A DNA stretch of 64,000 bases, taken from NCBI GenBank assembly GCA_016180525.1, contig JACPBB010000002.1:48824-112823 (forward strand), read 5' to 3'. Positions 3,135 to 62,424 of the stretch are shown piece by piece. This stretch comes from Parcubacteria group bacterium (GTDB lineage Bacteria; Patescibacteriota; Minisyncoccia; Phycocordibacterales; UBA2135). The notes beneath the pieces were generated by a model. The model worked only from the letters and a program-made list of their open reading frames with translations. It searched no databases and had not been told where the DNA came from. Numbering within the stretch: the stretch's first letter is position 1; the number at the start of each line of letters is the position of its first letter. Made by a program: the position numbers and the translations under genes.

Positions 3135-5183
3135 ATGGAGTTTGAAATGACCCCGATCGATGTTGATAAGCTCATTAAAAATGATATTGAAAGAAAGAAA
3201 AAGCGTCACAGCAAGCATCAGCATATCACATTTAAAGAGTACCTTGAATTAGTGAAGCAGAACCCGCGTATTGCCCAAAACGCATTCGCACGAGTGCATC
3301 AAATGATAATGCATGCCGGCATTGAAGAAATTCCGGAACATGAACGTTGGCTCGGTGTTGATCGGCGCCTTCTATTCTTTGCCCAAAAACTATTTGGCAT
3401 TGATTCTTGCGTTGTACAACTCACCGACCACATGGAAGCAGGCGCAAACCGTGCCTCAACGGGCAAACAAATCCCCCTTTTGGTTGGTCCGCCGGCGAGC
3501 GGAAAATCAAGCATTGTAAAAATGCTCAAACAAGGTTTGGAGCACTATGATCTCTTGCCCATTTTTGCAATCTCTGGATGTCCGAAGCACGAAGAGCCCC
3601 TACATCTACTTCCGAGAAATACGCGGGAAGAGATTGAAAAAGACCTTGGAGTACGTATTACTGGAGACCTGTGCCATGTATGTCGGCACCGCTTAAAAAC
3701 TGAATTTAAATCTGATGACGGCACTATTCGTTGGTGGGAATTCCCCGTTGAGACATTTACATTTTCTATTCAAGGAGCTCGCGGTATTACTTCATTTGAA
3801 CCTTCCAATGAAAAGGCGTCCGATATAACGGCTTTGACCGGAAGAGAAAATGTCGGTGTTACTTCAAATCCAAATCGTGGATACAAAGACCCTCACGCAT
3901 TTGAACTCTCTGGAGAAATTCCAAAGGCAGAGCGTGGAATTTGCGAAGGAAGAGAGCTTACTTCAAGCGACCCGGAAGTGCTTAATGTGTTCTTCAGCGT
4001 TGCCGAGGAACAAGAGTTGAAAATTACCGGTTCTAACTTCCCTCACCTGTCAGTGGATGCTGTCATTATCGGGCATACGAATCTAACGCCATATAAAAAC
4101 TTTGCGGGGGACAAGAAACACGAGGGACTGCATCAACGATTTTATGTGATTCCGTGTCCATATCCGCTTCGTATTCAGGACGAAGTCCGTGTATATAGAA
4201 AGCTCATTGAACAAGAAAGTGATTTTGTCCGTCTGAAGAAATGCCACATTGCCCCCGGCTCGCTTGAGCTCGCGGCAACGTTTGCTGTCATTACACGATA
4301 TGTAGAGTCTGACAAAGTCGGACCAATCACAAAGGCAAAAATCTACAATAACGAAAAGGCGCTTACAGAACTCGAAAACGCAGAAAGCAGGCCTCGTGAT
4401 ATTCAAGAATTGCTTGATGAAGGCCAGGGACATGCGGATATCGCAAAACGCGAAGGAATGTTCGGCGCAAGTGCGAGAGACGTGCTCGCGGCGCTCAACA
4501 ACGCACTCGTGCGCGAATCGACGCGCGGCAAGTGCTTAACCCCGCTTACCGCAATTCGTGCTATGCGCGATATATTCCAAGGTGAACACCGCATGGGATA
4601 CACTCCTGAGCAAATACAGAAATTCTTGGAGCTACTCTCTGCCGCAGAGGGAGAGAGTGTCATGACAGAGTACAAAGAGTTTGTCGTGACGGTCGTGAAC
4701 AAAGCGTATCTTAGGGCATACGGATCTCTTGCGGAAGAATTGTTTAGAAAGTACATTGCGGAAGTTGATCATTATCGCGACACAAAAAGAAAATATGTTC
4801 GCGGAAAACAAGTTGAGATTAAACGAGATATCGTAACGAACAAACCCAAGGAGCCTGATATCAAATTTCTCCGCTCTATTGAACAGCACATTCCGCTCAC
4901 GGAAGCAGAAGCAGAAGTGTTTCGCGGAGAAGTTCTTGAGTGTAAGGCAAGCATGAAGGACTTTTCTTACTCAACATATCCCCCCCTTGCGCGCGCGGTT
5001 GAGAAAAAGCTTCTCGCAGACAGTAAGTCCAGCCTGACGCTTGTGCTCGCGAGCGACAAACCGAAGGGAACCGAGGAAAAGAAACGAGTTGAAAACCTGT
5101 TCGCCTCTCTCGGCGAAAGTGGATTCTGTGAAGTGTGCGCTAAAGAAGTTGTTGAAAAAGCACAAGAGTTTTTGAGAGAATAA
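3135..5183 (+). CDS. prkA: PrkA family serine protein kinase (YeaG-like)
   Basis: Walker A motif LVGPPASGKSS. Length and overall similarity fit PrkA/YeaG. It is followed by yeaH and spoVR, as in the conserved trio. Confidence 0.9.
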   Translation: MEFEMTPIDVDKLIKNDIERKKKRHSKHQHITFKEYLELVKQNPRIAQNAFARVHQMIMHAGIEEIPEHERWLGVDRRLLFFAQKLFGIDSCVVQLTDHMEAGANRASTGKQIPLLVGPPASGKSSIVKMLKQGLEHYDLLPIFAISGCPKHEEPLHLLPRNTREEIEKDLGVRITGDLCHVCRHRLKTEFKSDDGTIRWWEFPVETFTFSIQGARGITSFEPSNEKASDITALTGRENVGVTSNPNRGYKDPHAFELSGEIPKAERGICEGRELTSSDPEVLNVFFSVAEEQELKITGSNFPHLSVDAVIIGHTNLTPYKNFAGDKKHEGLHQRFYVIPCPYPLRIQDEVRVYRKLIEQESDFVRLKKCHIAPGSLELAATFAVITRYVESDKVGPITKAKIYNNEKALTELENAESRPRDIQELLDEGQGHADIAKREGMFGASARDVLAALNNALVRESTRGKCLTPLTAIRAMRDIFQGEHRMGYTPEQIQKFLELLSAAEGESVMTEYKEFVVTVVNKAYLRAYGSLAEELFRKYIAEVDHYRDTKRKYVRGKQVEIKRDIVTNKPKEPDIKFLRSIEQHIPLTEAEAEVFRGEVLECKASMKDFSYSTYPPLARAVEKKLLADSKSSLTLVLASDKPKGTEEKKRVENLFASLGESGFCEVCAKEVVEKAQEFLRE

Positions 5184-5192
5184 CATACCCCA

Positions 5193-5225
5193 AAGCCCCC
5201 TCTTTTATGAGGTGGGCTTTTTTGC
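5193..5225 (+). terminator. intra-operon hairpin + T-run (attenuator-like) between prkA and yeaH
   Basis: AAGCCCCCTC...GGTGGGCTT stem followed by TTTTTTG. Confidence 0.4.
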
Positions 5226-5267
5226 TACACTCTAACATAGAGTATCCTTGAAAGACGGAGAATATAG

Positions 5268-5804
5268 ATGCCAATTATTGTCTCAGAACATATTCAAGAA
5301 CGCGGCAAGGGAGATGCGCGACGACATCGCGACAAGCAGCGAGAGGCTATAAAGAAAAATCTTCCTGAAATACTTTCGGAAGAATCAATTATCACTGGAA
5401 GGCCGGGGAAAATTATAAAAGTCCCCATTAAGAGTCTTGATATACCGCATTTTAAACACGGGCGAGGCAAAGACGAAAATGACGCCGGAGTTGGTCAAGG
5501 TAAGGGAAAGCCAGGGGATGTTATTGGTCGTCGGCCAGGAAAAGGAACAAAACCTGGAGGACCGGGAACTGAACCAGGGGTAGACTATCTTGAGGCAGAA
5601 TTTACCATTGAAGAATTGACGGAATTATTCCTTGAAGATATGGGTCTCCCCCGACTTGAGAAAAAAAATGTCCGTGAAATTGAAGTAGAGCTTGGATTTA
5701 AAGTAAGAGGAACCCAGCGCACAGGGCCGCATGTCCTTTTAAATCGCAAAAAAAACAGCGCAAGAGGGAATGAAGCGGTTTTGGAGCTTTCTCCAAGCAC
5801 TTAA
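5268..5804 (+). CDS. yeaH: YeaH/YhbH (DUF444) family protein, N-terminal part (frame 0; interrupted)
   Basis: N-terminal DUF444 region (lysine/arginine-rich, GRPGKGTKPGGPG). The frame terminates at 5804 while the C-terminal part continues in another frame. Confidence 0.6.
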   Translation: MPIIVSEHIQERGKGDARRHRDKQREAIKKNLPEILSEESIITGRPGKIIKVPIKSLDIPHFKHGRGKDENDAGVGQGKGKPGDVIGRRPGKGTKPGGPGTEPGVDYLEAEFTIEELTELFLEDMGLPRLEKKNVREIEVELGFKVRGTQRTGPHVLLNRKKNSARGNEAVLELSPST

Positions 5805-6597
5805 ACAAGAAACGGGAAAATCTGAACTGCACTGTTACGAAGCATTGAAGCGCACAGACGGCCGTTTTGCCGACGCGCTTGAATTGCTCAACGCAGGAAA
5901 AATTGTGCTGACAGACGAAAGTCACGTTTCTGTTGATCCATTCCCGATTCTTCACCATGAAGATTATCGATATCACAAAATAGAAGAAGATGTTACAAAA
6001 GAATCTCAGGCTGTGGTCATTGCGATTATGGACGTTTCCGCGTCAATGACTCCTCTCAAAAAATATTTCGCTCGCACAATGATCTTCTGGCTTGTAAATT
6101 TCCTACGGCAAATATATAAACGAGTTGACATCCGTTTTATCGCCCATGATACCGAGGCACGAATCGTCGATGAAGAAAATTTCTTCAGAGTTGGAGAAAG
6201 CGGCGGAACACACTGTTACGCCGGATATGAACTCGCAAACTCACTCATAGAGACTGATTATCCGATAAGCCAATGGAATGTGTATGTATGGCACTTCTCT
6301 GACGGAGAAGATGGAAACACAGCACGTTCTATGGAAGAGGCACGGAGGCTTTTTGAGCGAAAGATTAATATGTTCGGCTATGGGGAAATATGTCCTGAAA
6401 AAGAATATTGGCCACCTGAACTTCTAAAACAATTTATTAAGACCTTTGATCTCAAAGAAGTTAAAGAAGAAAAAGATTTCACGGTTCATGTAAGTTTTGA
6501 CGAAAAATATCCGTTCTTGGGTGTCGCGATGCAGGAAAAAAAACATATCTGGCAAGCCCTTAAGGCGTTTCTCAAGCGAGATAGGTGGTCGTCATGA
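5770..6597 (+). CDS. yeaH: YeaH/YhbH (DUF444) family protein, C-terminal vWA-like part (frame +1; open from 5743)
   Basis: VVIAIMDVSASM metal-ion-dependent adhesion motif and the conserved C-terminus of YeaH. It overlaps the upstream ORF, consistent with a 1-nt indel in the A8 tract at 5748-5755. Confidence 0.6.
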   Translation: MKRFWSFLQALKQETGKSELHCYEALKRTDGRFADALELLNAGKIVLTDESHVSVDPFPILHHEDYRYHKIEEDVTKESQAVVIAIMDVSASMTPLKKYFARTMIFWLVNFLRQIYKRVDIRFIAHDTEARIVDEENFFRVGESGGTHCYAGYELANSLIETDYPISQWNVYVWHFSDGEDGNTARSMEEARRLFERKINMFGYGEICPEKEYWPPELLKQFIKTFDLKEVKEEKDFTVHVSFDEKYPFLGVAMQEKKHIWQALKAFLKRDRWSS

Positions 6598-8105
6598 AAA
6601 AGCACGAACTAAAGCGTCTTATACAAATTGAGAAAGAAATAAAAAAGATCGCGGTTGAAGAGTGCGGCCTCTTAACGACCGATATCGTATTTGAGGTTGT
6701 CCCCGCAAGAAAAATGATTGAGGCAATGGCGTATCAGTTTCCGGTCAACTTTTCACACTGGTCCTTTGGACGCGATTATGACAGGCATCGCACCATTTAC
6801 GAACACACCGGAGTTGGAATACCATATGAACAAGTGTGGAACTTTGAAATTCCTAAGGCACTTCTCGTTGATACCAATCCACTTCCGTTAAATGTGTTGG
6901 TAATAGCCCATGTATACGGACACGTTGATTACTTTTTAGGAAATCGCTACTTACAACACGGTCGTTCTTTTTCCGATATCGCCGAAGAAGCACGGTATGC
7001 GGCGACACGGTTTAAAGAATATGAAGTCCGATTTGGAATAGAGTGGGTTGAAAAAGTAATTGAGGCAGGTATGGCGCTACAATGGCACCAGCCGCTTGAT
7101 CCCTTCCTGGAAGAGCCGCGTGAAGAAGATGCTCGTGCATATCTCATGAAATTGGAAAAAGAGAAAATGCGGTACGTTCAGACACACGCGGTCTCGTCAA
7201 ATAAAAAGAAGACTGAACAAGAGTTACGGAGACTGGAAGCACAGCTTAAAATACTCGCGCACAAAACTCCACCTGAACCAGTATATGATATACTCCAATA
7301 CATTATTAAACACGCCCCACGCCTTAAGGAAGAGGAGCGTGATATTTTAACGGTTATCAGAAATCAAGCGCGAGCACTGGCTCCAAATCGCAGAACGAAA
7401 CTGCTCGATGAAGGATGGGCGACATACTGGCACACCCGTATCATGCGCCGACTATTTGAAAAAGGACTTTTGAGTGCTGAAGAACATGGAGTCTTCCTTG
7501 ACTATCACGCAAAAGTAACTCAAGCGAGTAAGCGACAATTCAATGTATACAATATCGGTCCCGCACTCTTTGAGTACATAAAAGAGCGTTGGGACAGAGG
7601 GCAGTTCGGAAAAGAGTATGAGGAATGTAGGAACCCTTTTGAACGAAATCGATGGGACACAAAAGTAAACAGGGGAACAGAAAAAATATTTGAAGTTCGT
7701 TCTTCATATACTGACCGCATGGCAGCAGAAGAGTTTTTTACTCCAGATTTTATACGAGCATGTGAGTTATATATTTATGAAGATCGTCAAGATGGCTTAG
7801 GAAACATTGTGTCTGTCGTTGTGGAAAAGAGACCCGCAGAAGTTCAAAAAATCTTCAAAAGAATATATGCTCTCTACGGCACGCCTCAAATATGTGTCAT
7901 TGACGGCAATTATAAAGACAAAGGATTTTTGTATCTTGCCCACAAACCCTTCGGGGATGGGGAGCTTGATCAAACATACCGAAAAGGAGCTCTTGAATAT
8001 GTTTATGCATGTTGGAAACGCCCGGTTTTTCTGGAGACACAAATCGGCAAAGATGTTGTTGTATGTTCTTTTGATGGAACAAAACACAAGATTGTACCTA
8101 AATAA
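6585..8105 (+). CDS. spoVR: SpoVR family protein (YcgB-like)
   Basis: Full-length similarity to SpoVR/YcgB. Its start overlaps the yeaH end. Confidence 0.9.
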   Translation: MVVMKKHELKRLIQIEKEIKKIAVEECGLLTTDIVFEVVPARKMIEAMAYQFPVNFSHWSFGRDYDRHRTIYEHTGVGIPYEQVWNFEIPKALLVDTNPLPLNVLVIAHVYGHVDYFLGNRYLQHGRSFSDIAEEARYAATRFKEYEVRFGIEWVEKVIEAGMALQWHQPLDPFLEEPREEDARAYLMKLEKEKMRYVQTHAVSSNKKKTEQELRRLEAQLKILAHKTPPEPVYDILQYIIKHAPRLKEEERDILTVIRNQARALAPNRRTKLLDEGWATYWHTRIMRRLFEKGLLSAEEHGVFLDYHAKVTQASKRQFNVYNIGPALFEYIKERWDRGQFGKEYEECRNPFERNRWDTKVNRGTEKIFEVRSSYTDRMAAEEFFTPDFIRACELYIYEDRQDGLGNIVSVVVEKRPAEVQKIFKRIYALYGTPQICVIDGNYKDKGFLYLAHKPFGDGELDQTYRKGALEYVYACWKRPVFLETQIGKDVVVCSFDGTKHKIVPK

Positions 8106-8112
8106 ATACGCA

Positions 8113-8150
8113 AAACCGCTCTGGTATACATCAGAGCGGTTTTTTCTTTT
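8113..8150. terminator. rho-independent terminator after spoVR
   Basis: AAACCGCTCTG...CAGAGCGGTTT hairpin followed by a T-run. Confidence 0.6.
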
Positions 8151-8155
8151 GGTGC

Positions 8156-8215
8156 GCAGGAGAGGAATTTCACTACTCGTCGCTCCGCCAGTTGGCGGAG
8201 CTCCTGCGCTTTCAA
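8156..8215 (-). other. tRNA-Leu-derived pseudo-tRNA remnant
   Basis: On the minus strand it reads GCGCAGG...ATTCCTCTCCTGCGCACCA. It shares the 5' acceptor strand and the last about 18 nt (T-stem plus acceptor plus CCA) with the bona fide tRNA-Leu 190 bp away. The internal region is replaced by a single hairpin. Confidence 0.45.
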
Positions 8216-8308
8216 ACCACTCGGTTTGAAGAATCCTCCACGGGAAAACTACAGTTTTCCCGGCCCCTTTCGTGTTCAAATCCTCACCGTGCTCAAAAAC
8301 ATCACAAC

Positions 8309-8343
8309 AAAAAAACCGTACTGTTTGTGAGTACGGTTTTTTT
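8309..8343. terminator. hairpin + T-run immediately downstream of tRNA-Leu
   Basis: CCGTAC...GTACGG stem flanked by an A-run and a T-run. Confidence 0.45.
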
Positions 8344-8347
8344 GTTT

Positions 8348-8434
8348 TGGTGCGCAGGAGAGGATTTGAACCTCCACGACCTTGCGGCCACTAGCCCCTC
8401 AAGCTAGTGCGTCTACCAGTTTCGCCACCTGCGC
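8348..8434 (-). tRNA. tRNA-Leu (anticodon GAG), class II with long variable arm, CCA encoded
   Basis: Cloverleaf read by eye. Anticodon loop is TTGAGGG, variable arm GGCCGCAAGGTC, T-loop TTCAAAT, and the acceptor stem is GCGCAGG/CCTGCGC. Confidence 0.85.
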
Positions 8435-24175: not shown

Positions 24176-25666
24176 ATGAAAGAGTTTGATGTGGAAGTTA
24201 CCACAAACGTTGTGGAATATTTAAAACAAAGACATTTTCGTCCATATAAGCGAAGCATTTTAAAGTTATGCCTAAAAATGCTTGAAAAATACACGGGAGA
24301 GAATATTACTATACCCGTCTCTCGAGAGCTTCAATTACTTGGAGGAACATCGGTTTATCTTTGGAATTCAATAGAGACGCTCTACGCACTGCAGTCTTTG
24401 GGTATCGTTTCGCATTTCTCAAAAAATATGCACTACCCAGACGAGCCGCGTCTTCACGGATATAGCGCGGCATATTCAACCTCAGCAAATCGTTCACTAA
24501 GTAGAGCAAGCGGGGTTGATTTCTTTGACAAAAAAAAGGCTTTCTTCCGAATGCTTGGCGAATCAGTTGAGCGGCATTTGTGGTCTTGCACAGATTTTTT
24601 TTCAAGAAATCAAATAATGAAACCTTATAAAGAAATTAAAAATAAATCATTGAATATATTTTTACTTGCCGGATTCACGAAAGAACAAAAAAAACAATAT
24701 AGAGAGCTCCAGCTTACCGAAAATACACCACTTGCGTGGATTCCCGCCACATCACTTGTAAGTGAAAAGAAAATATGGTGTCCAACACAACTATTGAGCG
24801 TCCGTTATTTTAGAGAAAATGTGAGAACGCCAAAGAGACCCGCGAAACCAGAGCCAATGCTGCGGTGGTGTGTTACCACAGGTCTTGCAACGGGAAAAAC
24901 ACTAGAGGAAGCAATCGTTGCTGGGATATTGGAGGTAATAGAAAGAGACGCATTTATGATTACCTTTTTAAATAAACTCTCTCCTCCACTCATAGATTTG
25001 GAATATGTCGCAAGCCAAGACAAAGACATAGATACTATTTTGAAAAAATTTAAACGATACAATCTTGAAGTATATATGATCGCGCTTCCCACTGATTTTC
25101 CTGTACACGTTGTGTTGAGCCTCGTTATTGACCCATCGGGACGAGGCCCGGCTACAAGTGTGGGAGCAAGTGCTGATTTTGATTTAAAAAGATGCATCCT
25201 TGACGCATTATCTGAATCTCTCTCAGTAAGATACAATATAAAAAATAAATACAAGGATCCGATTGATTTGCAACATATTGGAAGAGAAGAGAGAATATTA
25301 TATTGGGCAAAAGAAGAAAACGTGCCTGGTCTTGAATTTTTAACAAAAGGGAAAAAAAATAAAGTTGAGTTAAATAAACAACATGTTTCGCAAAACTCAG
25401 AGATTCGTCATGACAAAAAACAACTTGATACACTTAGAGTAGAATTTAAAAAACAAAATCAAGAAGTATGTTTTGTAGAGCTTTCCTCAAAAGAAACCAG
25501 AAAACTTGGCTTTAGAACGGTTTTTGTGGTTGCTCCGGAAATGCAGCCAATGCACCTTGATGAATCAATCCCCTATTTTGGTGGCAAGCGCCTCAAGGAA
25601 GTACCTGAGAAACTGGGATACAAACCAGCGAAAGAATTAAATAAGGAGCCACATCCCTTTCCTTAA
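24176..25666 (+). CDS. YcaO domain cyclodehydratase (TOMM D-protein-like) with about 100-aa N-terminal extension and C-terminal PxPxP
   Basis: FFRMLGESVERH and GLATGKTLEEAIVAGILEVIERDAF YcaO signatures. The C-terminus ends EPHPFP (PxPxP motif). Confidence 0.85.
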   Translation: MKEFDVEVTTNVVEYLKQRHFRPYKRSILKLCLKMLEKYTGENITIPVSRELQLLGGTSVYLWNSIETLYALQSLGIVSHFSKNMHYPDEPRLHGYSAAYSTSANRSLSRASGVDFFDKKKAFFRMLGESVERHLWSCTDFFSRNQIMKPYKEIKNKSLNIFLLAGFTKEQKKQYRELQLTENTPLAWIPATSLVSEKKIWCPTQLLSVRYFRENVRTPKRPAKPEPMLRWCVTTGLATGKTLEEAIVAGILEVIERDAFMITFLNKLSPPLIDLEYVASQDKDIDTILKKFKRYNLEVYMIALPTDFPVHVVLSLVIDPSGRGPATSVGASADFDLKRCILDALSESLSVRYNIKNKYKDPIDLQHIGREERILYWAKEENVPGLEFLTKGKKNKVELNKQHVSQNSEIRHDKKQLDTLRVEFKKQNQEVCFVELSSKETRKLGFRTVFVVAPEMQPMHLDESIPYFGGKRLKEVPEKLGYKPAKELNKEPHPFP

Positions 25667-25668
25667 TC

Positions 25669-26415
25669 ATGCTTTCTAAATTATTTCACAAAAAAATCAC
25701 AAATGAACGACCATATACACCAAGAGACCCAAAAGATTGGCCGATTTCATGGCGTACCGTGTATTTTAAAGAATACCCAAGATTTGATAGAGTAATGCTG
25801 CCAATAAATTTTTTAGAGCTGAAAAATTTAAAAGATGTTTTAGAAAAAAGACATTCTACCAGAACGTTTGACATAAAAAAAGAAATAACTCTACAGGAAC
25901 TCTCAACAATGCTTTATTATTCAGCCGGCATAAAAGGGACGCCTGGCAAATATAGAGACAAGCCGCAAATGGAAAAAAATAAATCAAGGCGATTCTATCC
26001 GTCCGGCGGAGAGCGATATCCGCTTGAAGTGTACGTCGCAATAAAGCGAATTTCCGAGATAAACTCTGGAATATACCACTATAACTTGCCCAATCACTCT
26101 CTTGAACAATTGTCAGATAAAGAATGTTTAAGCGAGTTTTATGAAGCACTTGGCGAACCATGGGCAAAAGACGCTGCGGTAGTTTTTATTATAACTGCTG
26201 TCTGGGATAGAAATTTTATAAAATATCAAGACTTCGGTTACAACATAATTCTTACCGAGACGGGACATATGGCTCAAAATCTAATTTTACTTTCAGAGTC
26301 TTTGGATCTACACTATTGTCCGTTTATTGGATTTGATAATAAAAAAATAAATAAAATTTTAGACATTGATGAGGAAAATGAGTCTTCTTTATATATGATT
26401 GCAGGAGGAAAATAG
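25669..26415 (+). CDS. SagB-type dehydrogenase (nitroreductase superfamily, TOMM B-protein-like)
   Basis: RHSTRTF and PSGGERYPLEVY motifs. Its start lies 3 nt after the ycaO stop. Confidence 0.8.
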   Translation: MLSKLFHKKITNERPYTPRDPKDWPISWRTVYFKEYPRFDRVMLPINFLELKNLKDVLEKRHSTRTFDIKKEITLQELSTMLYYSAGIKGTPGKYRDKPQMEKNKSRRFYPSGGERYPLEVYVAIKRISEINSGIYHYNLPNHSLEQLSDKECLSEFYEALGEPWAKDAAVVFIITAVWDRNFIKYQDFGYNIILTETGHMAQNLILLSESLDLHYCPFIGFDNKKINKILDIDEENESSLYMIAGGK

Positions 26416-26457
26416 TATTATTGATTCTTTAGAGAAATTTTATGTGCTATTAATTGT

Positions 26458-27483
26458 ATGTTTTTTATAAAAAACCTTTCACAAAACAACACAGAGCATG
26501 AAACCGTATTACAGGATCAGCTCTTGGCAACGCACTACTTAATTACTCTCACACACACAACACTTGAGCGTCTGGGCCTTTTTGATGTCTTGAGAAAAAA
26601 AACAGAGCCAGCAGCAATTGATGAGCTATCAAAAATAATAAAAGTAAGAACTGACATTTTAGAGGCTTGTATTAATTTCTTGTGGTCTACGACCAATTAT
26701 CTAGAAAAAAACGGGCAAAAAATTATTTTGAAAAATAATCCGCCAAAATGGTTTTGGATAGCAACGTATAAACCTGTATTTGACAACTTAGAAAGTTTAT
26801 TAAAAGGAACAAAAAAATATGGAAATGATGTTGTTCGTGATGGATATTATTTACAAAAAATGTCTATTACAATCAATAATCCGGTTGAAAATTATATAGT
26901 CCAACAGCTTCAAGAAATTAAAGAAAAAAGTATCCTTGTCGATTTGGGCTGCGGCCCAGGGACACTTCTTTCACGGGTAAGCGCTGCAAATCCATTAATA
27001 GAGGGGCTTGGCATAGATGTTGACCCAATCATAACCGACATTGCTCAAAAAAACGTAATGCGTTCGCGTCGTCCAATAAAAATTATCACGGCAGACGTGA
27101 CAAAAATACATTTCTGGAAAAAACACATTCCATCAAATGTAAATCTTATATTCTCAGCAAATTCCATACTCCATGAACTCTTACGAGACGGAGAAGAAAG
27201 GTTCATCTCTTTTTTAAAAACACTCAAGGGCGCGTTTCCGGGCTCTCGATTTTTTGTAACAGAAATTAACGCGCTTTCGCCTCAAGAAATAAAAAATATG
27301 CGGAGCAACGATTACAAATTTTTTATGGCAATGTTTATGTTCACCCATCCGCTTACTGAACAGGGATTGCCACGATCCAAAAAAGAATGGCTTTCTTTTT
27401 TTAAAAAAAGCCAGTGGTCCGTCATGCGAACAGAACAACCTAAAAATAATGACGCGCGAATTATCTATGACTGTCTCTTATGA
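26458..27483 (+). CDS. class I SAM-dependent methyltransferase (O-MT-like with N-terminal dimerisation region)
   Basis: ILVDLGCGPGTLLS motif I. Confidence 0.75.
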   Translation: MFFIKNLSQNNTEHETVLQDQLLATHYLITLTHTTLERLGLFDVLRKKTEPAAIDELSKIIKVRTDILEACINFLWSTTNYLEKNGQKIILKNNPPKWFWIATYKPVFDNLESLLKGTKKYGNDVVRDGYYLQKMSITINNPVENYIVQQLQEIKEKSILVDLGCGPGTLLSRVSAANPLIEGLGIDVDPIITDIAQKNVMRSRRPIKIITADVTKIHFWKKHIPSNVNLIFSANSILHELLRDGEERFISFLKTLKGAFPGSRFFVTEINALSPQEIKNMRSNDYKFFMAMFMFTHPLTEQGLPRSKKEWLSFFKKSQWSVMRTEQPKNNDARIIYDCLL

Positions 27484-36834: not shown

Positions 36835-37716
36835 ATGGACATGCTCAAATGGATAATTTTTATACTTGTTATTCTTTGGATCGTTTGGTTTTTAACCGGC
36901 GGTCCAAAAAGCGGATTTGTCAGTCAGCCGTTTTTACGCCCTCCCGCCCCTCTTGATACCGGGGAGCTTTATGGAGAACCGCTTTCAATTCCAGGCTTTG
37001 AAAGCAGAAGTGAAACGGGGTCTGCACAAGAAGAGAGCGCGCCTACATCAATATTCAGCGGAAGTATACAGCTTGCGGTTGGCAACCCCTACACTCAAAG
37101 TCCGCAGGAAGAATATGTTGAGATACGAGCCTCTTACAGCAACACGCAACCAATTAACATAACTGGCTGGGAAATAAAAAGCGCGATAAGCGGACTTGGC
37201 GCAAAGATCGGACAGGGAGTATACCTGCCGGCGTCTGGATTAGTAAACAGAGAAGAGCAAATTTTTCTAAATCCAGGTGACCACGCCGTTATAAACACGG
37301 GGCGATCCCCAAACGGCGTTTCGTTTCGGCTTAACAGTTGCACCGGGTACTTTGAACAATTCCAAGATTTTGCTCCGCAGCTTCCCTCGCAATGTCCGCT
37401 TATTGAAACTAAAGATCTGCCCGCAGTTGGAGCAGGAGGATTAAATGATGCCTGTATAAATTATATAGAACGTCTTCCGCAGTGTTTTGCTCACGTGCTT
37501 GCGGTCCCCACAGAGCTTTCTTCGGCATGCGGTGAATATATAAATAAAAATATCCATTACAGCGGATGTGTAGCCGCGCATAAAAATGATTCGGATTTTT
37601 ACAAGTCAGAATGGAGAATATTTCTAAATCAAAATACCGAATTGTGGCGCCAAACTAGAGAAACAATAAAGTTGTTTGATGCGCAGGGAAAAGTCATAGA
37701 CTCGCTTTCCTATTAG
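36835..37716 (+). CDS. hypothetical membrane-anchored Cys-containing protein
   Basis: N-terminal TM segment. No recognised domain. Confidence 0.5.
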   Translation: MDMLKWIIFILVILWIVWFLTGGPKSGFVSQPFLRPPAPLDTGELYGEPLSIPGFESRSETGSAQEESAPTSIFSGSIQLAVGNPYTQSPQEEYVEIRASYSNTQPINITGWEIKSAISGLGAKIGQGVYLPASGLVNREEQIFLNPGDHAVINTGRSPNGVSFRLNSCTGYFEQFQDFAPQLPSQCPLIETKDLPAVGAGGLNDACINYIERLPQCFAHVLAVPTELSSACGEYINKNIHYSGCVAAHKNDSDFYKSEWRIFLNQNTELWRQTRETIKLFDAQGKVIDSLSY

Positions 37717-37723
37717 GAATTAG

Positions 37724-37782
37724 GCACTAGGCGTTAGAATTTAAATTTTCTAGAGCCTAACGCCTAATACCTAGAGCCTTTT
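37724..37782. repeat. TTAGGCG-heptamer palindromic intergenic element (convergent-gene terminator)
   Basis: aggcactaggcgttagaa...ttctagagcctaacgcctaatacctagagcc. The same element family occurs at 59355-59415, 61395-61440 and 62425-62520. Confidence 0.5.
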
Positions 37783-38339
37783 TAAATATTTAAAATTCTG
37801 AAGAGGGCAGCCCCAGCTGCGACAGAGACATTGAGTGACTCCTTTTTCCCCTTCATGGGAATTTCCGCGATGATGTCGCAGTATTTGAGCACAGACGCGG
37901 GAATTCCCGACACTTCATTTCCAAAAACAAATGCTGTTTTTTTCTTCGGATGAATAGTTTTATAATCAATAGATTTTTTATCCTGCTCAATCGCAATAAC
38001 ATAAAAGCCATTTTGTCGTAATAACTTAATGAGCGGCACAACTCCAGTAACCTGCTCCCAGAATACTGTTTTTTCGGCCCCAAGCGCGGTTTTTTGAATC
38101 TCTTTTTGAATTCTACTAAATCTATCTATGGGCGCCGGGGTATGCCCCACAAGATATATTTTTGAAACTCCAGCTGCTTCTGCTGTCCTAAATATTGAGC
38201 CGACATTGTGGGTGCTTCGAATATTATGGAGCACAACTACAACTTCTTTATGGTTTCTCATGCGAAAACTATACCATATAATCTCTATGATATACTCATA
38301 GTATGATCTCTTTGTTTCCAGACTTTCTTTCGTTCGCAC
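37782..38339 (-). CDS. SpoU/TrmH family RNA 2'-O-methyltransferase
   Basis: VVVLHNIRSTHNVGSIFRTAEAAG motif. Confidence 0.8.
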   Translation of the reverse strand: MRTKESLETKRSYYEYIIEIIWYSFRMRNHKEVVVVLHNIRSTHNVGSIFRTAEAAGVSKIYLVGHTPAPIDRFSRIQKEIQKTALGAEKTVFWEQVTGVVPLIKLLRQNGFYVIAIEQDKKSIDYKTIHPKKKTAFVFGNEVSGIPASVLKYCDIIAEIPMKGKKESLNVSVAAGAALFRILNI

Positions 38340-48262: not shown

Positions 48263-48472
48263 CGAGTGTAGTGAGTATATTTTCTTAACCGAGAGCACTC
48301 AACGTATTGAGTGCTTGGTGCTCAAAAAATGTGGTCGCTTCGCTCCCTATTTATTTGGCATGTCTGGTCATAACAAATGGAGTAAAATTAAACACCCTAG
48401 TATCACAGCGCGAAGCGCTGGCTACGGGGCGGGAAGTGGTAATACAGACTTATCAGAGTAAAATTACATACG

Positions 48473-49006
48473 ATGTCGGGACATAACAAATGGAGTAAAA
48501 TTAAACACAAAAAAGCGGCGGAAGATGCTAAAAAAAGCAAGGCATTTTCAAAGTTTACCCGCCTCATAACGCTTGAGGCAAAAAAAGCAGCCGGAAACAA
48601 AGACGCTCCCGGGCTGCGAACTATCATTGAGCGCGCACGAGCAATTAACATGCCTGCCGATAATATTGAGCGAGCAATTAAAAAAGGTTCTGATAAAGAA
48701 TCCGCAAATCTTGAGGAGGTAACATATGAAGCATACGGTCCGGGCGGAAGCGCGCTCATTGTAGAGGGACTCACTGATAACAAAAACAGGACTTTGGGAG
48801 AATTAAAAATATTATTCGCTGATTATGATACAACTCTTGCCGAGCGCGGAGCAGCACTCTGGGCGTTTGAAAAAACTCCCGACAAAAAGTGGCACCCAAA
48901 AACTACCATGTCTCTTTCAGATGAGAATAAGGAAAAATTAAAACAACTGATTGATATGTTGGAGGAAAACGATGATGTGCAAGCAGTATATACTAATGGC
49001 GGTTAG
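48473..49006 (+). CDS. yebC: YebC/PmpR family DNA-binding transcriptional regulator
   Basis: MSGHNKWSKIKHKKAA N-terminus is characteristic of YebC. Followed by ruvC, as in many bacteria. Confidence 0.85.
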   Translation: MSGHNKWSKIKHKKAAEDAKKSKAFSKFTRLITLEAKKAAGNKDAPGLRTIIERARAINMPADNIERAIKKGSDKESANLEEVTYEAYGPGGSALIVEGLTDNKNRTLGELKILFADYDTTLAERGAALWAFEKTPDKKWHPKTTMSLSDENKEKLKQLIDMLEENDDVQAVYTNGG

Positions 49007-54038: not shown

Positions 54039-55136
54039 CTACTTATTGAGCGGCATCACGAGGTACATGAATGATTTGTCCCCCACTCCTCGTATGACAA
54101 GCGGGCGAGCTTCGCCGCTAAATTGAAAGACAACGCTGTCTTTTGGTATTGAAGCAAAACATTCAATCAAATATCTCTGATTAAAACTCAAAGAAAGTTT
54201 TTCTCCGGAAAGAGCTCCTTCTATATTCGCCACATGCTCTCCAACATCCGCATTTTGGGAATGAACTGTAAACTCTTTTCCTTTAGGATCAACTGAGAAA
54301 TCAACCTGATTTAATTTATCTGAAAATATATTGGATATTTTTAGGGCATTTATCATATCTTCTTTTAGTATCGTTGCTTCTGATTTAAATTCTTTGGGAA
54401 TAATCTGTTGATAATCCGGAAAGACGCCGTCAATAATGCGGGAAGTTATATACATATTTTCAGTCACAAAAGAAATTTGATTTTTATCAAAATGAACTTC
54501 AACATCTCCAGAAACTTCGTCAAGTATTCGTATTATTTCCAATATATTTTTTAACGGGATAAGCACCGGAGAAAATTGTTCTCCATGGGAAACAGATAAT
54601 TTTTTTTCAGCAAGACGAAACGAGTCGGTCGCGACTAGCGTAACTGTGTCAGAGTCTCCAAAAATATAAACGCTTGATATTTCAGGTTTTATATCGGATA
54701 GTGAGGCACTGTGAGAAACTGATTTAAGTCCCGAAACAAATTTATGCGAATCAATAATAAAAGGATTTTTATTTTTTATATGGGGTAATGTCGGAAAATC
54801 TTCATATGGGTAACTTTTAATAACCGTTGATATATTTTTTGTTGAAACTGAAAGATTATTATTTTTAAGCTTCAATGAAACCGTCTTGTCATGCATATTT
54901 GATAGCAGATTATTAAGTACTCCACCGGGAATTGCGGTTACCCCTTCTTCTTCTACTTTTGCAGGAACTATAATTTCAACTCCTAAATCAAGATTCGTTG
55001 CCCGTATACGCACCATTTGTCCTTTAGCGACAAAAAGTAAAGAACTCAAAATAGGCAATGTAAGATTTTTACCGGTTACTTTTTCTGCAATACTGACAGC
55101 ATTTTTTATTTTTTCTTTTACACATTCTATTCTCAT
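54039..55136 (-). CDS. dnaN: DNA polymerase III subunit beta (sliding clamp)
   Basis: Three-domain clamp length. Position next to dnaA. Confidence 0.9.
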   Translation of the reverse strand: MRIECVKEKIKNAVSIAEKVTGKNLTLPILSSLLFVAKGQMVRIRATNLDLGVEIIVPAKVEEEGVTAIPGGVLNNLLSNMHDKTVSLKLKNNNLSVSTKNISTVIKSYPYEDFPTLPHIKNKNPFIIDSHKFVSGLKSVSHSASLSDIKPEISSVYIFGDSDTVTLVATDSFRLAEKKLSVSHGEQFSPVLIPLKNILEIIRILDEVSGDVEVHFDKNQISFVTENMYITSRIIDGVFPDYQQIIPKEFKSEATILKEDMINALKISNIFSDKLNQVDFSVDPKGKEFTVHSQNADVGEHVANIEGALSGEKLSLSFNQRYLIECFASIPKDSVVFQFSGEARPLVIRGVGDKSFMYLVMPLNK

Positions 55137-55440
55137 AAATAATCTATTTTAAAAAACTATACACCACTGTTTATAAAATATAATGTTTTGATTATAAATA
55201 TATAATGATGATTATAGTGTTGTTGATATGTTTATAAAACTTATATTGTCTTTAAATTCAAAGGTTTATTTGAAACTATAATTTTTAACATCGTGTTGAA
55301 AATTAAAATGAAATGTTTACATTTTTTTTATATCGGTAATTACAGAAATTATATCCATATCATGCACATGTTTTAATTCGATATTTCCACTCACTGTTCA
55401 CATTTTTATATAAGATGTAAACAGTGTTATAAACAATTCT
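55137..55440. promoter_or_regulatory. AT-rich dnaA-dnaN intergenic region with DnaA-box-like motifs (candidate oriC part)
   Basis: About 300 bp of very AT-rich DNA between dnaN and dnaA, with TGTTATAAACA/CTATACACC-like boxes. Confidence 0.35.
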
Positions 55441-56796
55441 TTAAAACATTGAACGAATTCTTTCAACCTCCTGAACGAGCATATTGTTTTCTTTTAGGTT
55501 GTTTCTGATTTTTTCACACGAATGTATAACGGTTGTGTGATCTCTTCCTCCCATTTTTTGTCCAATAGTTGGATAAGAAATATTAAAATCTTCCCGCAAA
55601 ATATACATAATTATCTGGCGAGGCTTAACAATTTCTTTACGCCTGGTTTTCTTATAAATATGATCTCGTTCTACATTGTAAAAATCAGAGACCACACGCA
55701 CCACATCATCAACGGAAAGCATTTTTTTAGGGCGTTCATTGTGTTTTATAAGAGACTTAATTTCTTGAATGGATAATTCTCTGTTTTTTAATTGAACTTG
55801 GCAGATAATCATATTTAATATTCCTTCTAATTCTCTGATACTGCTTTGCGTGGCAGAAGAAACATACTCAATAATTTCATCCGGCAATTCAAAATTTGCC
55901 TGCTTTGATTTTGATTTGAGGATAACCACTTTTGACTCAAAATCAGGCTCCATAATATCAACGATCATTCCCTGCCCAAGTCTAGATTTAAGGCGCTCCT
56001 CAAGTTCTGCGTAGTTGTAGTGTCTATCAGCGGAAAATATCATTTGTTTATTGTTGTTGTACAACGTATTAAACAAATGGAAAAATTCATCCTGTGTTCC
56101 GCCTTTTCCTTCAAAATAATGTATATCGTCCATTATGAGCACGTCATATTTACGGTATTTTTCCTTAAAAATACTTATTTTATTCATTTGCACTGAGTTT
56201 ATATAGTCAAGATAAAACTTTTCGGCAGTGAGATAATACACCTTTTTATTTTCATGAGCCTGTTTTATGCCATTCCCGACAGCTTGCATAAGATGTGTTT
56301 TACCAAGGCCAGTTTTCCCATAAATAAATAAGGGATTATAGGCATCGCCTGGCTTTTTCATGACCGATTGAGCAGCTGCATAGGCAATCTCGTTAAAGGG
56401 GCCTACCACAAAAGACTCAAAACCATATCGAGGGTTTAAATTATCTTCTTTATTTATATAAAGGTCTTTAAGAGGCAGTTCTCCGGCATAGGCTGGAGCT
56501 TTTTCCTCTAATTGTACGGCCTCTTTTACCTCTCGTGGCTCATTTTTTGTGATGATATACTCAATACTCCGCACGCCCTCGTTTAAATTCCGCAGAGAGC
56601 GCAGTATAGACTTATGATACTTATTGGAAAGCCACTCTCGCGCGAATCCATTGGGAACACCCAAAAAAATGATTCCATTTTCCTGCTTTACAATATAGGT
56701 GTTTTTAAACCATGTACTAAAATTTGCTTTGGAAACGCCTATCTCGAGGTCGCTGAGTACATTTTCCCAAAGTTGTTTGTTGTCCATAGTGAGCAC
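55441..56796 (-). CDS. dnaA: chromosomal replication initiator protein DnaA
   Basis: Walker A GKTGLGKTHL. AAA+ motifs. C-terminal DNA-binding domain (GGRDHTTV). Confidence 0.9.
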   Translation of the reverse strand: MLTMDNKQLWENVLSDLEIGVSKANFSTWFKNTYIVKQENGIIFLGVPNGFAREWLSNKYHKSILRSLRNLNEGVRSIEYIITKNEPREVKEAVQLEEKAPAYAGELPLKDLYINKEDNLNPRYGFESFVVGPFNEIAYAAAQSVMKKPGDAYNPLFIYGKTGLGKTHLMQAVGNGIKQAHENKKVYYLTAEKFYLDYINSVQMNKISIFKEKYRKYDVLIMDDIHYFEGKGGTQDEFFHLFNTLYNNNKQMIFSADRHYNYAELEERLKSRLGQGMIVDIMEPDFESKVVILKSKSKQANFELPDEIIEYVSSATQSSIRELEGILNMIICQVQLKNRELSIQEIKSLIKHNERPKKMLSVDDVVRVVSDFYNVERDHIYKKTRRKEIVKPRQIIMYILREDFNISYPTIGQKMGGRDHTTVIHSCEKIRNNLKENNMLVQEVERIRSMF

Positions 56797-57080
56797 GTTT
56801 TAAAGAGATTCTTATTTATTATTTATTAATTATATATGACTTGAAATTACTGCAAACTTGTTAAATTGGTTGCAGTGTGTTGATAATATGTGGAAAATGG
56901 TGATAAAAAAATTTGACTTTTAAATTTTTTGATAGAAATTAAAACAGGGCGTATTTTATAAATAAATCAAAAAAATTTTGATGCATTGATGCGCTCGTAT
57001 ATTAAATTTTTTTAATGCGAACCTTGTCCAAGGCGGGCGGGGGTTTACTAACATCACCTTTTGGTATACACTACCTGTTA

Positions 57081-57218
57081 ATGTCTAAAACATATCAACC
57101 CAAGAGGAAAAAAAGAAAAACAACGCATGGTTTTCTTGTTCGAAGAAAAACTGCCGGCGGAAGAAATATATTGAAGCGAAGAATGAGAAAAGGAAGGAGA
57201 CGTCTAACTGTTAAGTGA
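57081..57218 (+). CDS. rpmH: 50S ribosomal protein L34
   Basis: [29 protein letters not shown] matches L34. Confidence 0.8.
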
Positions 57219-58866: not shown

Positions 58867-59358
58867 ATGGAAACCGCATTTATACAAAAAACAATAGAAG
58901 ACATATTGAGGTGCCTTTCTGTTGACGCCACGTTTTCGGGCATTGTTGAAATAAACAACGGAGATATTATAAAATTTTCAATTAAAACAAAAGAGCCCTA
59001 TATTTTGATAGGAGATGAGGGTAAAGTACTCATGGCTTTTAATCATTTGATTAAAAAGATTTTTGAGACTCAGTCCGTGAAACAAAATTTTAAACCACTT
59101 AATTTTATTGTGGATATTAATGATTATCAGGAGCAGAAAATTGAAGATATAAAAAATAAAGCTCGCATGATGGCGGAGCGAGCGCGCTTTTTTAAAAACA
59201 ATGTTGAGCTACCTGCCATGAATCCGTATGAACGAATGATTGTGCATTCGTTTTTCACGAATACGCCCGATATAGAAACTGAATCAACCGGCACAGGCCT
59301 CGAGCGCCGCGTCGTGATTAAATATGTAGGAACAACAGAAGAGGCTCTAGGAAACTAG
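58867..59358 (+). CDS. Jag/KhpB-like RNA-binding protein (KH/R3H domain)
   Basis: C-terminal R3H-like MIVHSFF...GTGLERRVVIKYV. Position after yidC. Confidence 0.7.
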   Translation: METAFIQKTIEDILRCLSVDATFSGIVEINNGDIIKFSIKTKEPYILIGDEGKVLMAFNHLIKKIFETQSVKQNFKPLNFIVDINDYQEQKIEDIKNKARMMAERARFFKNNVELPAMNPYERMIVHSFFTNTPDIETESTGTGLERRVVIKYVGTTEEALGN

Positions 59359-59410
59359 GCTTTAGGCGTTAGGAAAAATTAAAAAACCCTAAAGCCTAGA
59401 GCCTGACGCC
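59359..59410. repeat. TTAGGCG-type palindromic intergenic element
   Basis: ctaggctttaggcgttagg...cctaaagcctagagcctgacgcctaaggcctaa. Lies between convergent genes. Confidence 0.5.
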
Positions 59411-60645: not shown

Positions 60646-60648
60646 GTT

Positions 60649-61392
60649 TTATTGTTTGACTTCACACACATAAGTGCCTGCAAAGTTTTGAGCAGTTCTT
60701 AAATATGAATAAGAAAATTCCCCTCCCTGTTTACTGCATACAATTCCAGCGGCCTTAACTTGTTCACCACTTACGTTTCCGGTTACGACTGCTTCAAAGT
60801 ATTTTCCTGTTTTGGGATCAAAATTAGTATATTTTAAAACATTTTCTTTTCTCCCGAGTAAGTCTTTGCCCGTAACGCTTGTTCCTGTTTTTGCGGCATT
60901 TTCTGCCTCTTTGACTGATGGTAGCGGAACTGTGGTTACATTTCTTGTCTCCGGAGAAAATTTAAATACCACCAAATCGGGGTTTATAGTTTCAAGCAAA
61001 AGATACCCGCCAAACGCTATGGCAAGTCCGAAAATCGCCATAGTAATTTTATTTTTCGCGTCCTCTTTTTTCGTAAACGCGTCGCTTCCCATGTATTCTA
61101 TCCCAGCAATAACAATAACAAGGACCGCAAGAACAATAGCAAGGCCGATACCCAAGAAAATAAGATTTTCAAGATACCCGATTGCGTTTGTTGTACCAAT
61201 TCCTTGCTGTCCCGGAAGTGAGGTAAGCGAAGTGTAGGAAACCTGAGCCACTTGCTCGTCACTTGCCACAGCAGCGGCATTTTGCTGGCCAGATTCATTC
61301 CATGCATATAGGCCGCCAATCATAATAAGCATTGTGGCGGTAACAATAAGAGGATGTTTTTTTTCTTGGACGAGTTTTAAAATTTTTTCCAT
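60649..61392 (-). CDS. hypothetical membrane protein with TrbC/VirB2-like two-helix pilin-like segment (tentative)
   Basis: Two long hydrophobic helices separated by a short polar loop (LIFLGIGLAIVLAVLVIVIAGIEY...ITMAIFGLAIAFGGYLLL). Adjacent to a VirB4-like ATPase. Confidence 0.45.
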   Translation of the reverse strand: MEKILKLVQEKKHPLIVTATMLIMIGGLYAWNESGQQNAAAVASDEQVAQVSYTSLTSLPGQQGIGTTNAIGYLENLIFLGIGLAIVLAVLVIVIAGIEYMGSDAFTKKEDAKNKITMAIFGLAIAFGGYLLLETINPDLVVFKFSPETRNVTTVPLPSVKEAENAAKTGTSVTGKDLLGRKENVLKYTNFDPKTGKYFEAVVTGNVSGEQVKAAGIVCSKQGGEFSYSYLRTAQNFAGTYVCEVKQ

Positions 61393-61436
61393 ATAATTTT
61401 TTTCTAAATCCTAATACCCAATATCTAGAGCCTAAT

Positions 61437-62423: not shown

Positions 62424-62424
62424 G

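Follow-up and report, generated by a model that had tools for sequence, protein, structure and literature searches.

What is the DNA that directly follows the tRNA-Leu gene in a genome of the Parcubacteria group (Patescibacteriota; assembly GCA_016180525.1, contig JACPBB010000002.1, positions 48,824 to 112,823), and why does part of it recur behind a tRNA-Arg gene of the same contig? In this stretch of 64,000 nt, hereafter the window, the original prediction had seen the footprint of small, possibly decayed, integrative elements that target tRNA genes. We analyzed the two loci and searched for their relatives in genomes and metagenomes. The results make it likely that both loci are copies of one family of gene-less mobile elements of about 160-250 nt, which is found in Patescibacteria and whose copies each carry a segment complementary to the site where they reside.

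Read in tRNA orientation, the Leu locus consists of a terminator, GAGGATTTGAAC, ACGAAAGGGGC, the hairpin CGGGAAAACTGTAGTTTTCCCG, UGGAGGA, a second hairpin, GCGCAGG, a third hairpin, GTAGTGAAAT, a copy of the tRNA end, and another terminator. The terminator, T-arm fragments, hairpin, GCGCAGG, and tRNA 3'-end copy that had been listed for this region are thus all present, as found by reading the sequence, by ARAGORN, and by a terminator scan. The 20-nt tRNA-Leu 3' end TCCTCTCCTGCGCACCAAAA has two occurrences, at 8345-8364 (hereafter R', at the end of the functional tRNA gene) and at 8147-8166 (hereafter R). Between them, GAGGATTTGAAC (8274-8285) matches the reverse complement of nucleotides 53-64 of the tRNA-Leu T-arm without exception and crosses the insertion point; further out, it continues as an imperfect extension that is antisense to the 3' strand of the acceptor. 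The 7-nt 5' acceptor strand of tRNA-Leu, GCGCAGG, recurs at 8203-8209. This is one of the features that had suggested a 60-nt tRNA remnant at 8156-8215. The features exist, but they do not stem from a decayed tRNA gene: the segment is the 3' tail of the element fused to the displaced native tRNA end. Tails homologous to that of the Leu copy, ending in ..GAGCAGTGAAAT and ..GAGTGAGAT, are found in other copies located at tRNA genes, and a contig of Candidatus Wildermuthbacteria (locus L057, JACOVZ010000045) is identical to the Leu locus of the window.

The Arg locus follows the same plan. The tRNA-Arg 3' end TCCTCGTGGGCGCAT (33956-33970) is found again at 34116-34130, ahead of a terminator. Hence, the insertions do duplicate tRNA 3' ends, as had been proposed, by 20 nt at Leu and 15 nt at Arg. 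The interior likeness of the two loci, previously put at about 85%, was measured at 81% identity over 52 nt (8234-8285 on the minus strand versus 33995-34046 on the plus strand), and the hairpin pattern was matched in none of 100 shuffles. A covariance model of the family (R1) found exactly two copies within the window, with 75.5 and 65.8 bits, placing the element at two of its seven tRNAs. The same core and layout at both loci support the idea of a single family of small elements without genes. The antisense T-arm of the Arg copy, CGAGGAATTGAAT, fits tRNA-Arg and not tRNA-Leu, i.e., the arm of each locus fits its own tRNA. At the Arg locus, guide-target statistics and folding give 17 contiguous pairs, including G-U pairs, of which 7 lie on the left (L) side of the junction and 10 on the R side. 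The Arg-type tail GGAGTGAGATAGCGAAGCG also occurs in loci L001, L015, L018, L086, and L109, behind five different tRNAs. The features of both loci are given in Table 1.

Table 1. Features of the Leu and Arg loci, in positions of the window.
Feature	Position	Strand	Basis or remark
tRNA-Leu(gag)	8348-8434	-	ARAGORN; Rfam tRNA, 53.9 bits; last 17 nt (8348-8364) from the R' copy of the element
Promoter-like site for tRNA-Leu	8477-8449		Terminator/promoter scan
Leu-locus inserted unit, 198 nt	8167-8364	-	R', terminator/apex, returning arm (guide), core, L-like tail
Limits of the Leu unit			Two 20-nt copies of the tRNA 3' end; R' given to the element by analogy with EF-G loci
Leu R' (element-borne)	8345-8364	-	Runs from T-loop U60 through CCA and 3 further nt; forms the end of the present functional tRNA; identical over 20 nt to 8147-8166
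Intrinsic terminator within the Leu element	8306-8346	-	Terminator scan, RNA fold; apex of the long P1 quasi-palindrome
Leu guide (returning arm)	8274-8296	-	Direct reading; guide-target statistics; predicted P1 helix, z = -8.8
Leu conserved core	8199-8276	-	ACGAAAGGGGC linker, hairpin 1, UGGAGGA linker, hairpin 2; model R1, 65.8 bits, E = 2e-15
Leu hairpin 1, CGGGAAAACTGTAGTTTTCCCG	8241-8262	-	
Leu hairpin 2	8211-8230	-	
Leu element 3' tail	8167-8210	-	GCGCAGG, hairpin 3, L-like end
Leu hairpin 3, GCTCCGCC-AACT-GGCGGAGC	8182-8201	-	
Leu L-like end, GTAGTGAAAT	8167-8176	-	Imitates T-loop GGTTCAAAT
Leu R, displaced native tRNA-Leu 3' end	8147-8166	-	
Native bidirectional terminator after Leu R	8112-8143		Common to the convergent SpoVR gene
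tRNA-Arg(gcg)	33898-33969	+	ARAGORN, Rfam; last 14 nt from R'
Arg-locus inserted unit, 160 nt	33956-34115	+	Limits are the two copies of TCCTCGTGGGCGCAT
Arg guide, CCGCGAGGAATTGAAT	33991-34006	+	Pairs with tRNA-Arg GGTTCGATTCCTCGTGG across the junction
Arg conserved core	34004-34107	+	Model R1, 75.5 bits, E = 7e-18
Arg hairpin 1	34018-34039	+	
Arg hairpin 2	34075-34096	+	Preceded by an insertion at the optional-hairpin position
Arg L-like tail, GGAGTAAGAT, plus AGCGAAGCG mini-hairpin	34097-34115	+	
Arg R, displaced native tRNA-Arg 3' end	34116-34130	+	
Native terminator after Arg R	34136-34175		

To place these loci in a wider context, we scanned 185,579 species genomes with the hairpin pattern, which yielded at least 119 loci, and the JGI metagenomes with a pattern of the first linker, which yielded at least 120 more. 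Overall there are more than 230 copies and, among the matches listed, nearly all those with a name are from Patescibacteria: Parcubacteria (among them Taylor-, Kaiser-, Nomura-, Yonath-, Vogel-, and Wildermuthbacteria) and metagenome-assembled genomes (MAGs) labelled as Saccharibacteria. No copy was found in the viral contigs scanned. A few matches restricted to the hairpin (L021, L034, L062, L079, and L112, from Oscillospiraceae, Planctomycetota, and others) are unrelated and were discarded. When the window, 18 loci, and a 207-nt unit were compared with Rfam 15 at gathering and permissive (E = 10) thresholds, only tRNAs and one RNase P were identified, and no family corresponded to the element. 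The best sub-threshold match was LOOT, with 21.8 bits for a threshold of 46.4; we regard it, and the weak matches to the Thr leader and to miRNAs, as noise. Full-text searches of the literature did not retrieve a description of the element.

The minimal core has about 78 nt, and the core ranges across the family from about 80 to 130 nt with two or three hairpins. It starts with NCGAARGGGGU, continues with hairpin 1 (9 bp, with loop UGUA, AGUU, or AGCU) and YGNNGGARR, and may then include an optional hairpin, often with a C-GNA-G triloop, before hairpin 2, which combines a variable lower stem with the conserved top GAACC-GWG-GGUUC and a triloop, and precedes a purine-rich tail. From the first 100 loci, model R1 recovered 111 copies, some of them diverged tandem copies that the pattern had missed. 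In the model-based alignment, paired cells amount to 96.9% versus 85.5% in shuffles, and compensatory changes affect 11 of the 18 pairs (235 cells), a level reached by none of 500 shuffles and abolished when the partners are slid. Most of this covariation comes from hairpin 2, where 8 of 9 pairs covary. The second linker and the loop of hairpin 2 are associated as well; this was unconvincing by eye and we did not retain it as a pseudoknot. The consensus fold has no long-range pairing of the P3/P7 type. On the sense strand of the element G-U pairs outnumber A-C pairs (25 vs 7), which identifies that strand as the folded form, either as RNA or as single-stranded DNA (ssDNA). C-GNA-G triloops are typical of unusually stable DNA mini-hairpins. 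Those seen here (GAA, GCA, GGA, and GUA, closed by C-G) are a hint, not proof, of an ssDNA form. Two further observations concern the core. A Shine-Dalgarno-like GGAGGA directly follows hairpin 1, with no conserved open reading frame (ORF) behind it, and a hairpin-1 variant of locus L008 (1712-1790), GGGGAACCUGCGGUU, is identical over 15 nt to the helix-45 region of Escherichia coli 16S rRNA, which may be coincidence or mimicry.

Where are these elements inserted? Among the matches listed, a tRNA gene of the same strand immediately precedes 31 of 114 genome copies and 43 of 122 metagenome copies, so further tRNA-adjacent copies do exist, as the original prediction implied. These tRNAs represent at least 18 amino-acid types, and the junction is always in the T-loop. 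In all tRNA-adjacent copies with a readable far side, a second tRNA 3' end, beginning at about U60, lies 65-125 nt past hairpin 1; repeats of 12-30 nt were found in 28 of the 31 other tRNA-adjacent copies. The element is not specific to tRNAs, however: two thirds of the copies are elsewhere with the same architecture. Nineteen loci are at the codons of the P-loop AHIDAGK/AHIDHGK in the genes of the GTPases EF-G, LepA, and TypA. Other targets are the KYRPQTF codons at the 5' end of dnaX, the 5' end of leuS (leucyl-tRNA synthetase), the 3' ends of lepA and fusA, and, close to DnaA boxes, a conserved site upstream of secA. The worry that the segment shared by the two window loci might be a ubiquitous terminator or a repetitive extragenic palindromic (REP) sequence without association to tRNAs is thus half justified. 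It is ubiquitous in Patescibacteria, but it is neither a terminator nor a REP: it is the scaffold of an insertion element matched to its target.

The order of the parts, in the orientation of the element, is constant: left flank, R', apex, returning arm, core, L-like tail, R. The duplicated segment (R'/R) has 12-61 nt and extends to the end of the gene or slightly past it; in the comparison of this layout, R' measured 16-61 nt. At tRNAs and gene 3' ends the element lies in sense orientation, and at gene 5' ends in antisense. Whatever the direction of the gene, its short end is in every case the one that is duplicated, as the viability of the host would demand. The L-like tail is a class-specific, slightly mismatched copy of the left flank. 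In the tRNA class it reads GUGAGAU for GUUCGAU, and in the GTPase class GACGAUGGGUGC for GCAUCAAUGUGCGC, which changes AHID to APIV. The latter tail is the same in EF-G, LepA, and TypA hosts and therefore belongs to the element. In one class, with a unit of 205 nt (class d), the target and the ends could not be resolved.

The part of the element that varies with the target is the returning arm, which we call the guide. It pairs with 4-10 nt at the end of the left flank and with the nucleotides that open the right flank, on the strand that carries the element; its pairing crosses the junction and stops 0-2 nt ahead of the conserved CGAA. Guides and their own targets have a median of 13 contiguous pairs, and 63% of them reach at least 12 nt. 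For mismatched guide-target pairs the median is 7 nt and the fraction 3.5%. Guides are 10-25 nt long, and the 226 copies analyzed have at least 60 different guide arms on one scaffold. Further out, the arm is an imperfect reverse complement of the whole R'. Together with R' and the last 4-10 nt of the left flank it makes a long quasi-palindrome in RNA folds, often with a terminator at the apex. Such an arm could in principle serve the host, if the element were a regulatory or processing RNA that controls tRNA maturation by sequestering the T-arm. The predicted P1 helix of the Arg locus would indeed sequester the T-arm, and the element is co-transcribed with the tRNA there. Yet the guide has the sense of the mRNA itself in protein genes and so cannot pair with it, the element occurs sporadically (at two of the seven tRNAs of the window), and the pseudo gene ends, foreign R', and multi-copy bursts described below are hallmarks of insertion. 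We thus regard a host RNA as very improbable and a mobile element with a guide arm as the likely explanation of both window loci.

If the element is mobile, which of the two gene ends is the native one? The EF-G loci are informative in this respect. In locus L003, the two EF-G starts differ at 10 synonymous and 2 non-synonymous codons, and since the differences are mostly synonymous both starts descend from functional genes. We found EF-G relatives at about 91% identity that are free of the element: L255 and L256, with the arrangement S7-9 nt-fusA, and L248 and L251, with an unrelated ORF in the S7-fusA spacer. The noncoding DNA upstream of fusA in L248 and L251 aligns, in L003, L031, and L058, with the region upstream of the displaced copy, and is unrelated to the region upstream of their functional copy. 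In L031, the functional copy (R') shares 86% identity with the native start found in the L255 lineage. From these alignments, R is the native end, and R', with new upstream or downstream signals, comes in with the element. The different lineages of R' and R rule out a simple target duplication by staggered cuts. The mobile unit is then the succession of R', apex, guide, core, and L-like tail, with the spans given for the two window copies in Table 1. As a separate observation, the spacer of L248 (530-1200) and L251 (555-1200) holds another insertion of about 650 nt, with an ORF of 110-120 codons without Pfam matches, that is present in some Parcubacteria.

These data also bear on an origin without any enzyme, by template switching during replication or by gene conversion driven by guide-target complementarity, R homology, and hairpins that stall polymerases. 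Long quasi-palindromes are classic template-switch substrates, and the end of L with R' and the returning arm make just such a structure, its apex often a terminator hairpin; no enzyme was found, and tandem copies are frequent. But the process would require three ordered switches and predicts a local R', which is foreign in the EF-G loci. Nor does it explain why distant lineages share such extremely conserved sequences in hairpin 1, in the linkers, and at the top of hairpin 2. Hence, we consider it quite unlikely.

The clearest sign of recent activity comes from the MAG MHSB01 of Taylorbacteria, where a unit of 205-207 nt is found in at least 14 copies, with 99-100% identity, at unrelated sites. 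This copy number, with the strong conservation of the core and the covariation of two hairpins, is at odds with the idea that the elements are decayed. A second and unrelated MITE (miniature inverted-repeat transposable element) of about 100 nt is present in the same MAG (L023:2260-2358, L030:2687-2797, L007:3251-3352), with GGGACTGTTGCCGAAT... as terminal inverted repeats and a duplication of the 5 bp TTGAG; two copies of the 207-nt element contain an insertion of it, so that a DDE-type transposase is active in MHSB01. Double or triple insertions in tandem are found in L008, L019, L025, L049, and L075. They would be expected if the restored site remained a target. In Logan assemblies of the window's own population there is at least a third copy, behind another tRNA. 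In two Logan contigs (L120 from SRR12113385 and L121 from SRR12113383), the sequence switches inside hairpin 1 from the 3' half of the Leu element to the 5' half of an element behind a different tRNA, whose 3' end is ..GGTTCGAATCCTGCCGCCTCCGA. We regard this as chimerism of the assembly or as recombination between copies of the element, and not as an empty site; switches of this type explain the assembly breaks at element loci.

The window has the genes dnaA and dnaN at 54.0-56.8 kb and rpmH at 57.08 kb. The succession dnaN, dnaA, AT-rich gap, and rpmH (54039-57216) points to a chromosomal origin at about 56.8-57.1 kb, with the rest of the window on one replichore. Relative to an origin at about 57 kb, the two window copies oppose each other. 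A strict lagging-strand rule is thus not evident from these two copies (n = 2), the orientation of which is constrained by viability.

Which protein could mobilize the element? Clustering the ORFs within 3 kb on either side of 110 copies revealed only host genes and no shared recombinase. Searches for multi-copy ORFs across 900 kb, and for R'/R repeats up to 4-5 kb away, did not find an autonomous version: all repeats are within 145 nt of the core, and no copy has cargo. No integrase, transposase, reverse transcriptase, or nuclease is common to the neighborhoods of the approximately 230 copies, and none of these copies is flanked by a DEDD recombinase, only host genes being conserved nearby. 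TnpA and TnpB were not seen in about 1.7 Mb of flanking DNA (windows of 8-14 kb around copies), and in a Pfam scan of 40 ORFs of the window the only recombination genes were the housekeeping RuvABC, RuvX, and PolA.

This speaks against a model in line with the original prediction, in which the loci would be islands of a tyrosine integrase that decayed to about 200 nt, leaving attL/attR scars or structures resembling cis-mobilizable elements (CIME). The T-loop is a known sublocation of integrase crossovers, so that the position of the insertions fits this model, as do the direct repeats of the tRNA 3' end at their flanks. However, the roughly 230 copies all have 160-250 nt, none has an integrase or cargo, and neither an integrase, a transposase, nor a reverse transcriptase was found in or near them. 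The interior is a conserved covarying structure instead of a decaying one, near-identical copies occupy 14 sites of a single genome, and one core is found at 60 or more sites that include protein genes, which a single att system specified by a protein could not achieve. An integrase-type element is thus highly improbable for these loci.

How might a guide-arm element move? We propose that the unit would enter highly conserved sequences at a fixed point, which in the two window loci is position 59/60 of the tRNA T-loop. The guide arm would pick the site through base pairs with the strand into which the element is joined. The donor junction (L-like|R'), a weakened image of the target (L|R), would then exchange strands with it at corresponding positions. 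The R' of the unit would then take over from the displaced gene end, so that the host gene stays intact and the native end is left stranded downstream. As catalyst we favor a factor acting in trans, although the element's own folded RNA or ssDNA may also play this role.

Another possibility is a tiny self-splicing or self-cleaving ribozyme in which the guide acts as an internal guide sequence (P1/P10), and which spreads when it reverse-splices into RNA or ssDNA and is then copied. The geometry of the guide corresponds to the pairing of the internal guide sequence of group I introns or of the exon-binding sites of group II introns, the beginnings of the putative intron (R') and 3' exon (R) are alike, as for alternative P1-extension and P10 pairings, and the G-U bias of the sense strand fits a folded transcript. 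Moreover, group I introns are common in Patescibacteria and occur in the T-loops of transfer-messenger RNAs (tmRNAs) (PMC13011429). Against this, Rfam models of group I introns, group II introns, and small ribozymes have no match even at E = 10, and the core is made of local hairpins and purine-rich linkers, with no P3/P7-type pairing. Splicing could not serve the host where the element is antisense in protein genes, the host gene is intact without splicing, the Leu copy has an internal terminator, and the C-GNA-G triloops of the optional hairpins are typical of DNA. We therefore see a ribozyme as unlikely.

Several points weigh against our preferred explanation, a mobile element directed by its guide arm. 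As no catalyst was identified, we infer mobility by guide-directed strand exchange from the anatomy of the copies, and this explanation does not account for the joint origin of guide and R' when a new target is taken. At the Leu locus a terminator lies between the tRNA and the guide and core, and the promoter scan found no good promoter for the element, so that its transcription is putative. The match of guide and target is not always good, with only 6 contiguous pairs in L022. A search for empty sites corresponding to the window loci, using SpoVR, L19, and S20, found no close pair of filled and empty sites: the contigs with exact proteins all stop at the element or at the tRNA, and the closest SpoVR homologue is only 60% identical. 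The conservation of hairpin 1 and of the first linker results in part from ascertainment, because the patterns used to collect the copies fixed those parts. Finally, the L-like tail imitates the target, which leaves the exact junction ambiguous by a few nucleotides. With these points taken into account, we still find it probable that a guide-arm mobile element explains both loci.

Does the element belong to a known system? By analogy, its logic resembles ssDNA transposition by IS200/IS605, bridge-RNA recombination, and reverse splicing. IS200/IS605 elements and the gene-less PATEs (HUH transposase TnpA, ssDNA "peel and paste") resemble the present element in several respects: strand-specific hairpins lie in the vicinity of both ends, the left one is directly preceded on its 5' side by a guide that pairs with the cleavage or target site outside the element, the right-end cleavage site is similar to the target, and the derivatives lack a transposase; the triloops fit ssDNA. 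Their guides, however, have 4-5 nt and are fixed per element, whereas here they have 10-25 nt and come in at least 60 kinds, and no known member carries a replacement for the interrupted gene. In the present element the hairpins and the adjacent guide were found, the guide is far longer than 4-5 nt, and a right-end guide was not identified.

The bridge RNAs or seekRNAs of IS110/IS1111 are also structured noncoding RNA (ncRNA) modules, of about 100-180 nt, that set target and donor by pairing and are programmable. Solo IS110 ncRNA modules, such as Ssr9 of ISPpu9, can ride on a transposase supplied in trans (PMC12288879). The present element differs by having no DEDD recombinase beside its copies, no likeness in sequence or in Rfam, and a single continuous guide arm within a long hairpin instead of split guides in two internal loops, its fold showing two or three simple hairpins. 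Furthermore, IS110 duplicates only a 2-nt core, as opposed to 12-61 nt of a gene end.

Integrase islands and homing elements share with the element a highly conserved essential target, a replacement gene end, a native pseudo-fragment, and a flanking direct repeat. In Allomyces atp6, a homing-endonuclease element reportedly brings a foreign copy of the displaced gene end. These elements encode the protein that recognizes the site, whereas ours encodes none and carries the complement of the site. Relative to integrase islands, it has the tRNA 3'-end repeat, no integrase was found in it or beside it, and it has at least 60 guide/target classes in place of specificity for one site.

The group I introns of tRNA genes of Patescibacteria (PMC13011429) and those of tmRNA T-loops have in common with the element the host phylum, tRNA-type targets, and a guide-like pairing over the junction. 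The former lie in the anticodon loop, at position 35/36, interrupt the gene, and are detected by the Rfam group I model (PMC13011429). The element instead uses a T-loop site, has no match to the P3-P9 core (Rfam Intron_gpI) at the gathering threshold or at E = 10, is antisense in EF-G, LepA, and dnaX, and leaves the gene intact, the tRNA being complete without removal. It is not a classical MITE either: terminal inverted repeats were not found, and the duplicated segment of 12-61 nt runs to the gene end and has one foreign copy. Overall, single features of the element recur in PATEs, solo IS110 modules, tRNA islands, homing elements, and group I introns, and it departs from each of them in major respects. 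In this sense it would be new, and a known transposase family as partner would make it a variant of that family. We thus put forward, tentatively, that it may be a new class of programmable insertion element guided by nucleic acid, with a module of about 100 nt, a freely exchangeable guide of 10-25 nt, precise insertion into essential genes, repair of the gene end, and catalysis by a host factor widespread in Patescibacteria or by its own folded RNA or ssDNA.

The window has other traits of interest. At 3135-8105 there is an operon with PrkA, DUF444 (two ORFs), and SpoVR that ends at the terminator common to the displaced tRNA-Leu end; homologues of SpoVR with 50-60% identity are widespread in Parcubacteria. 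At 48360-48508, the first 36 nt of a gene of the yebC/TACO1 family (MSGHNKWSKIKH) are present twice, 113 nt apart and differing at two synonymous positions. The interval of 77 nt contains the mini-hairpin AGCGCGAAGCGCT and a partial third copy (AGTAAAATTA) and is not matched by model R1; this may be a different or degenerate element that duplicates gene ends. Arrays of TTAGGCG-type heptamers (e.g., AGGCGTTAGGCGTTAGGCGTTAG) and of their complement (CTAGAGCCTAACGCCTAATGCCT) are found at 37713-37789, 59335-59420, and 62422-62533 as inverted repeats, one pair of which brackets about 3 kb (59356-62505). Finally, genes for a YcaO cyclodehydratase, a nitroreductase-family protein, a methyltransferase, and a DegT-type aminotransferase follow each other at 24176-28580, in a row that looks like a cluster for a ribosomally synthesized and post-translationally modified peptide (thiazole/oxazole-modified).

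If the guide arm sets the site, the element would be a minimal natural system for programmable DNA insertion to which no protein gene is linked. As a case of nucleic acids that direct their own integration, it would stand beside bridge RNAs, omega RNAs, and group II introns, and its partner enzyme, or its self-catalysis, would be of interest for genome engineering. The covariance model could become a new RNA or DNA family for annotation. For the genomes of Patescibacteria, the element explains why "pseudo-tRNA" fragments recur, why gene starts are found in duplicate, and why assemblies break beside tRNAs, and it documents the horizontal import of short pieces of essential genes. These reduced genomes tolerate a parasite of their most conserved sequences, i.e., T-loops, GTPase P-loops, and a clamp-loader motif, in which the gene is always restored.

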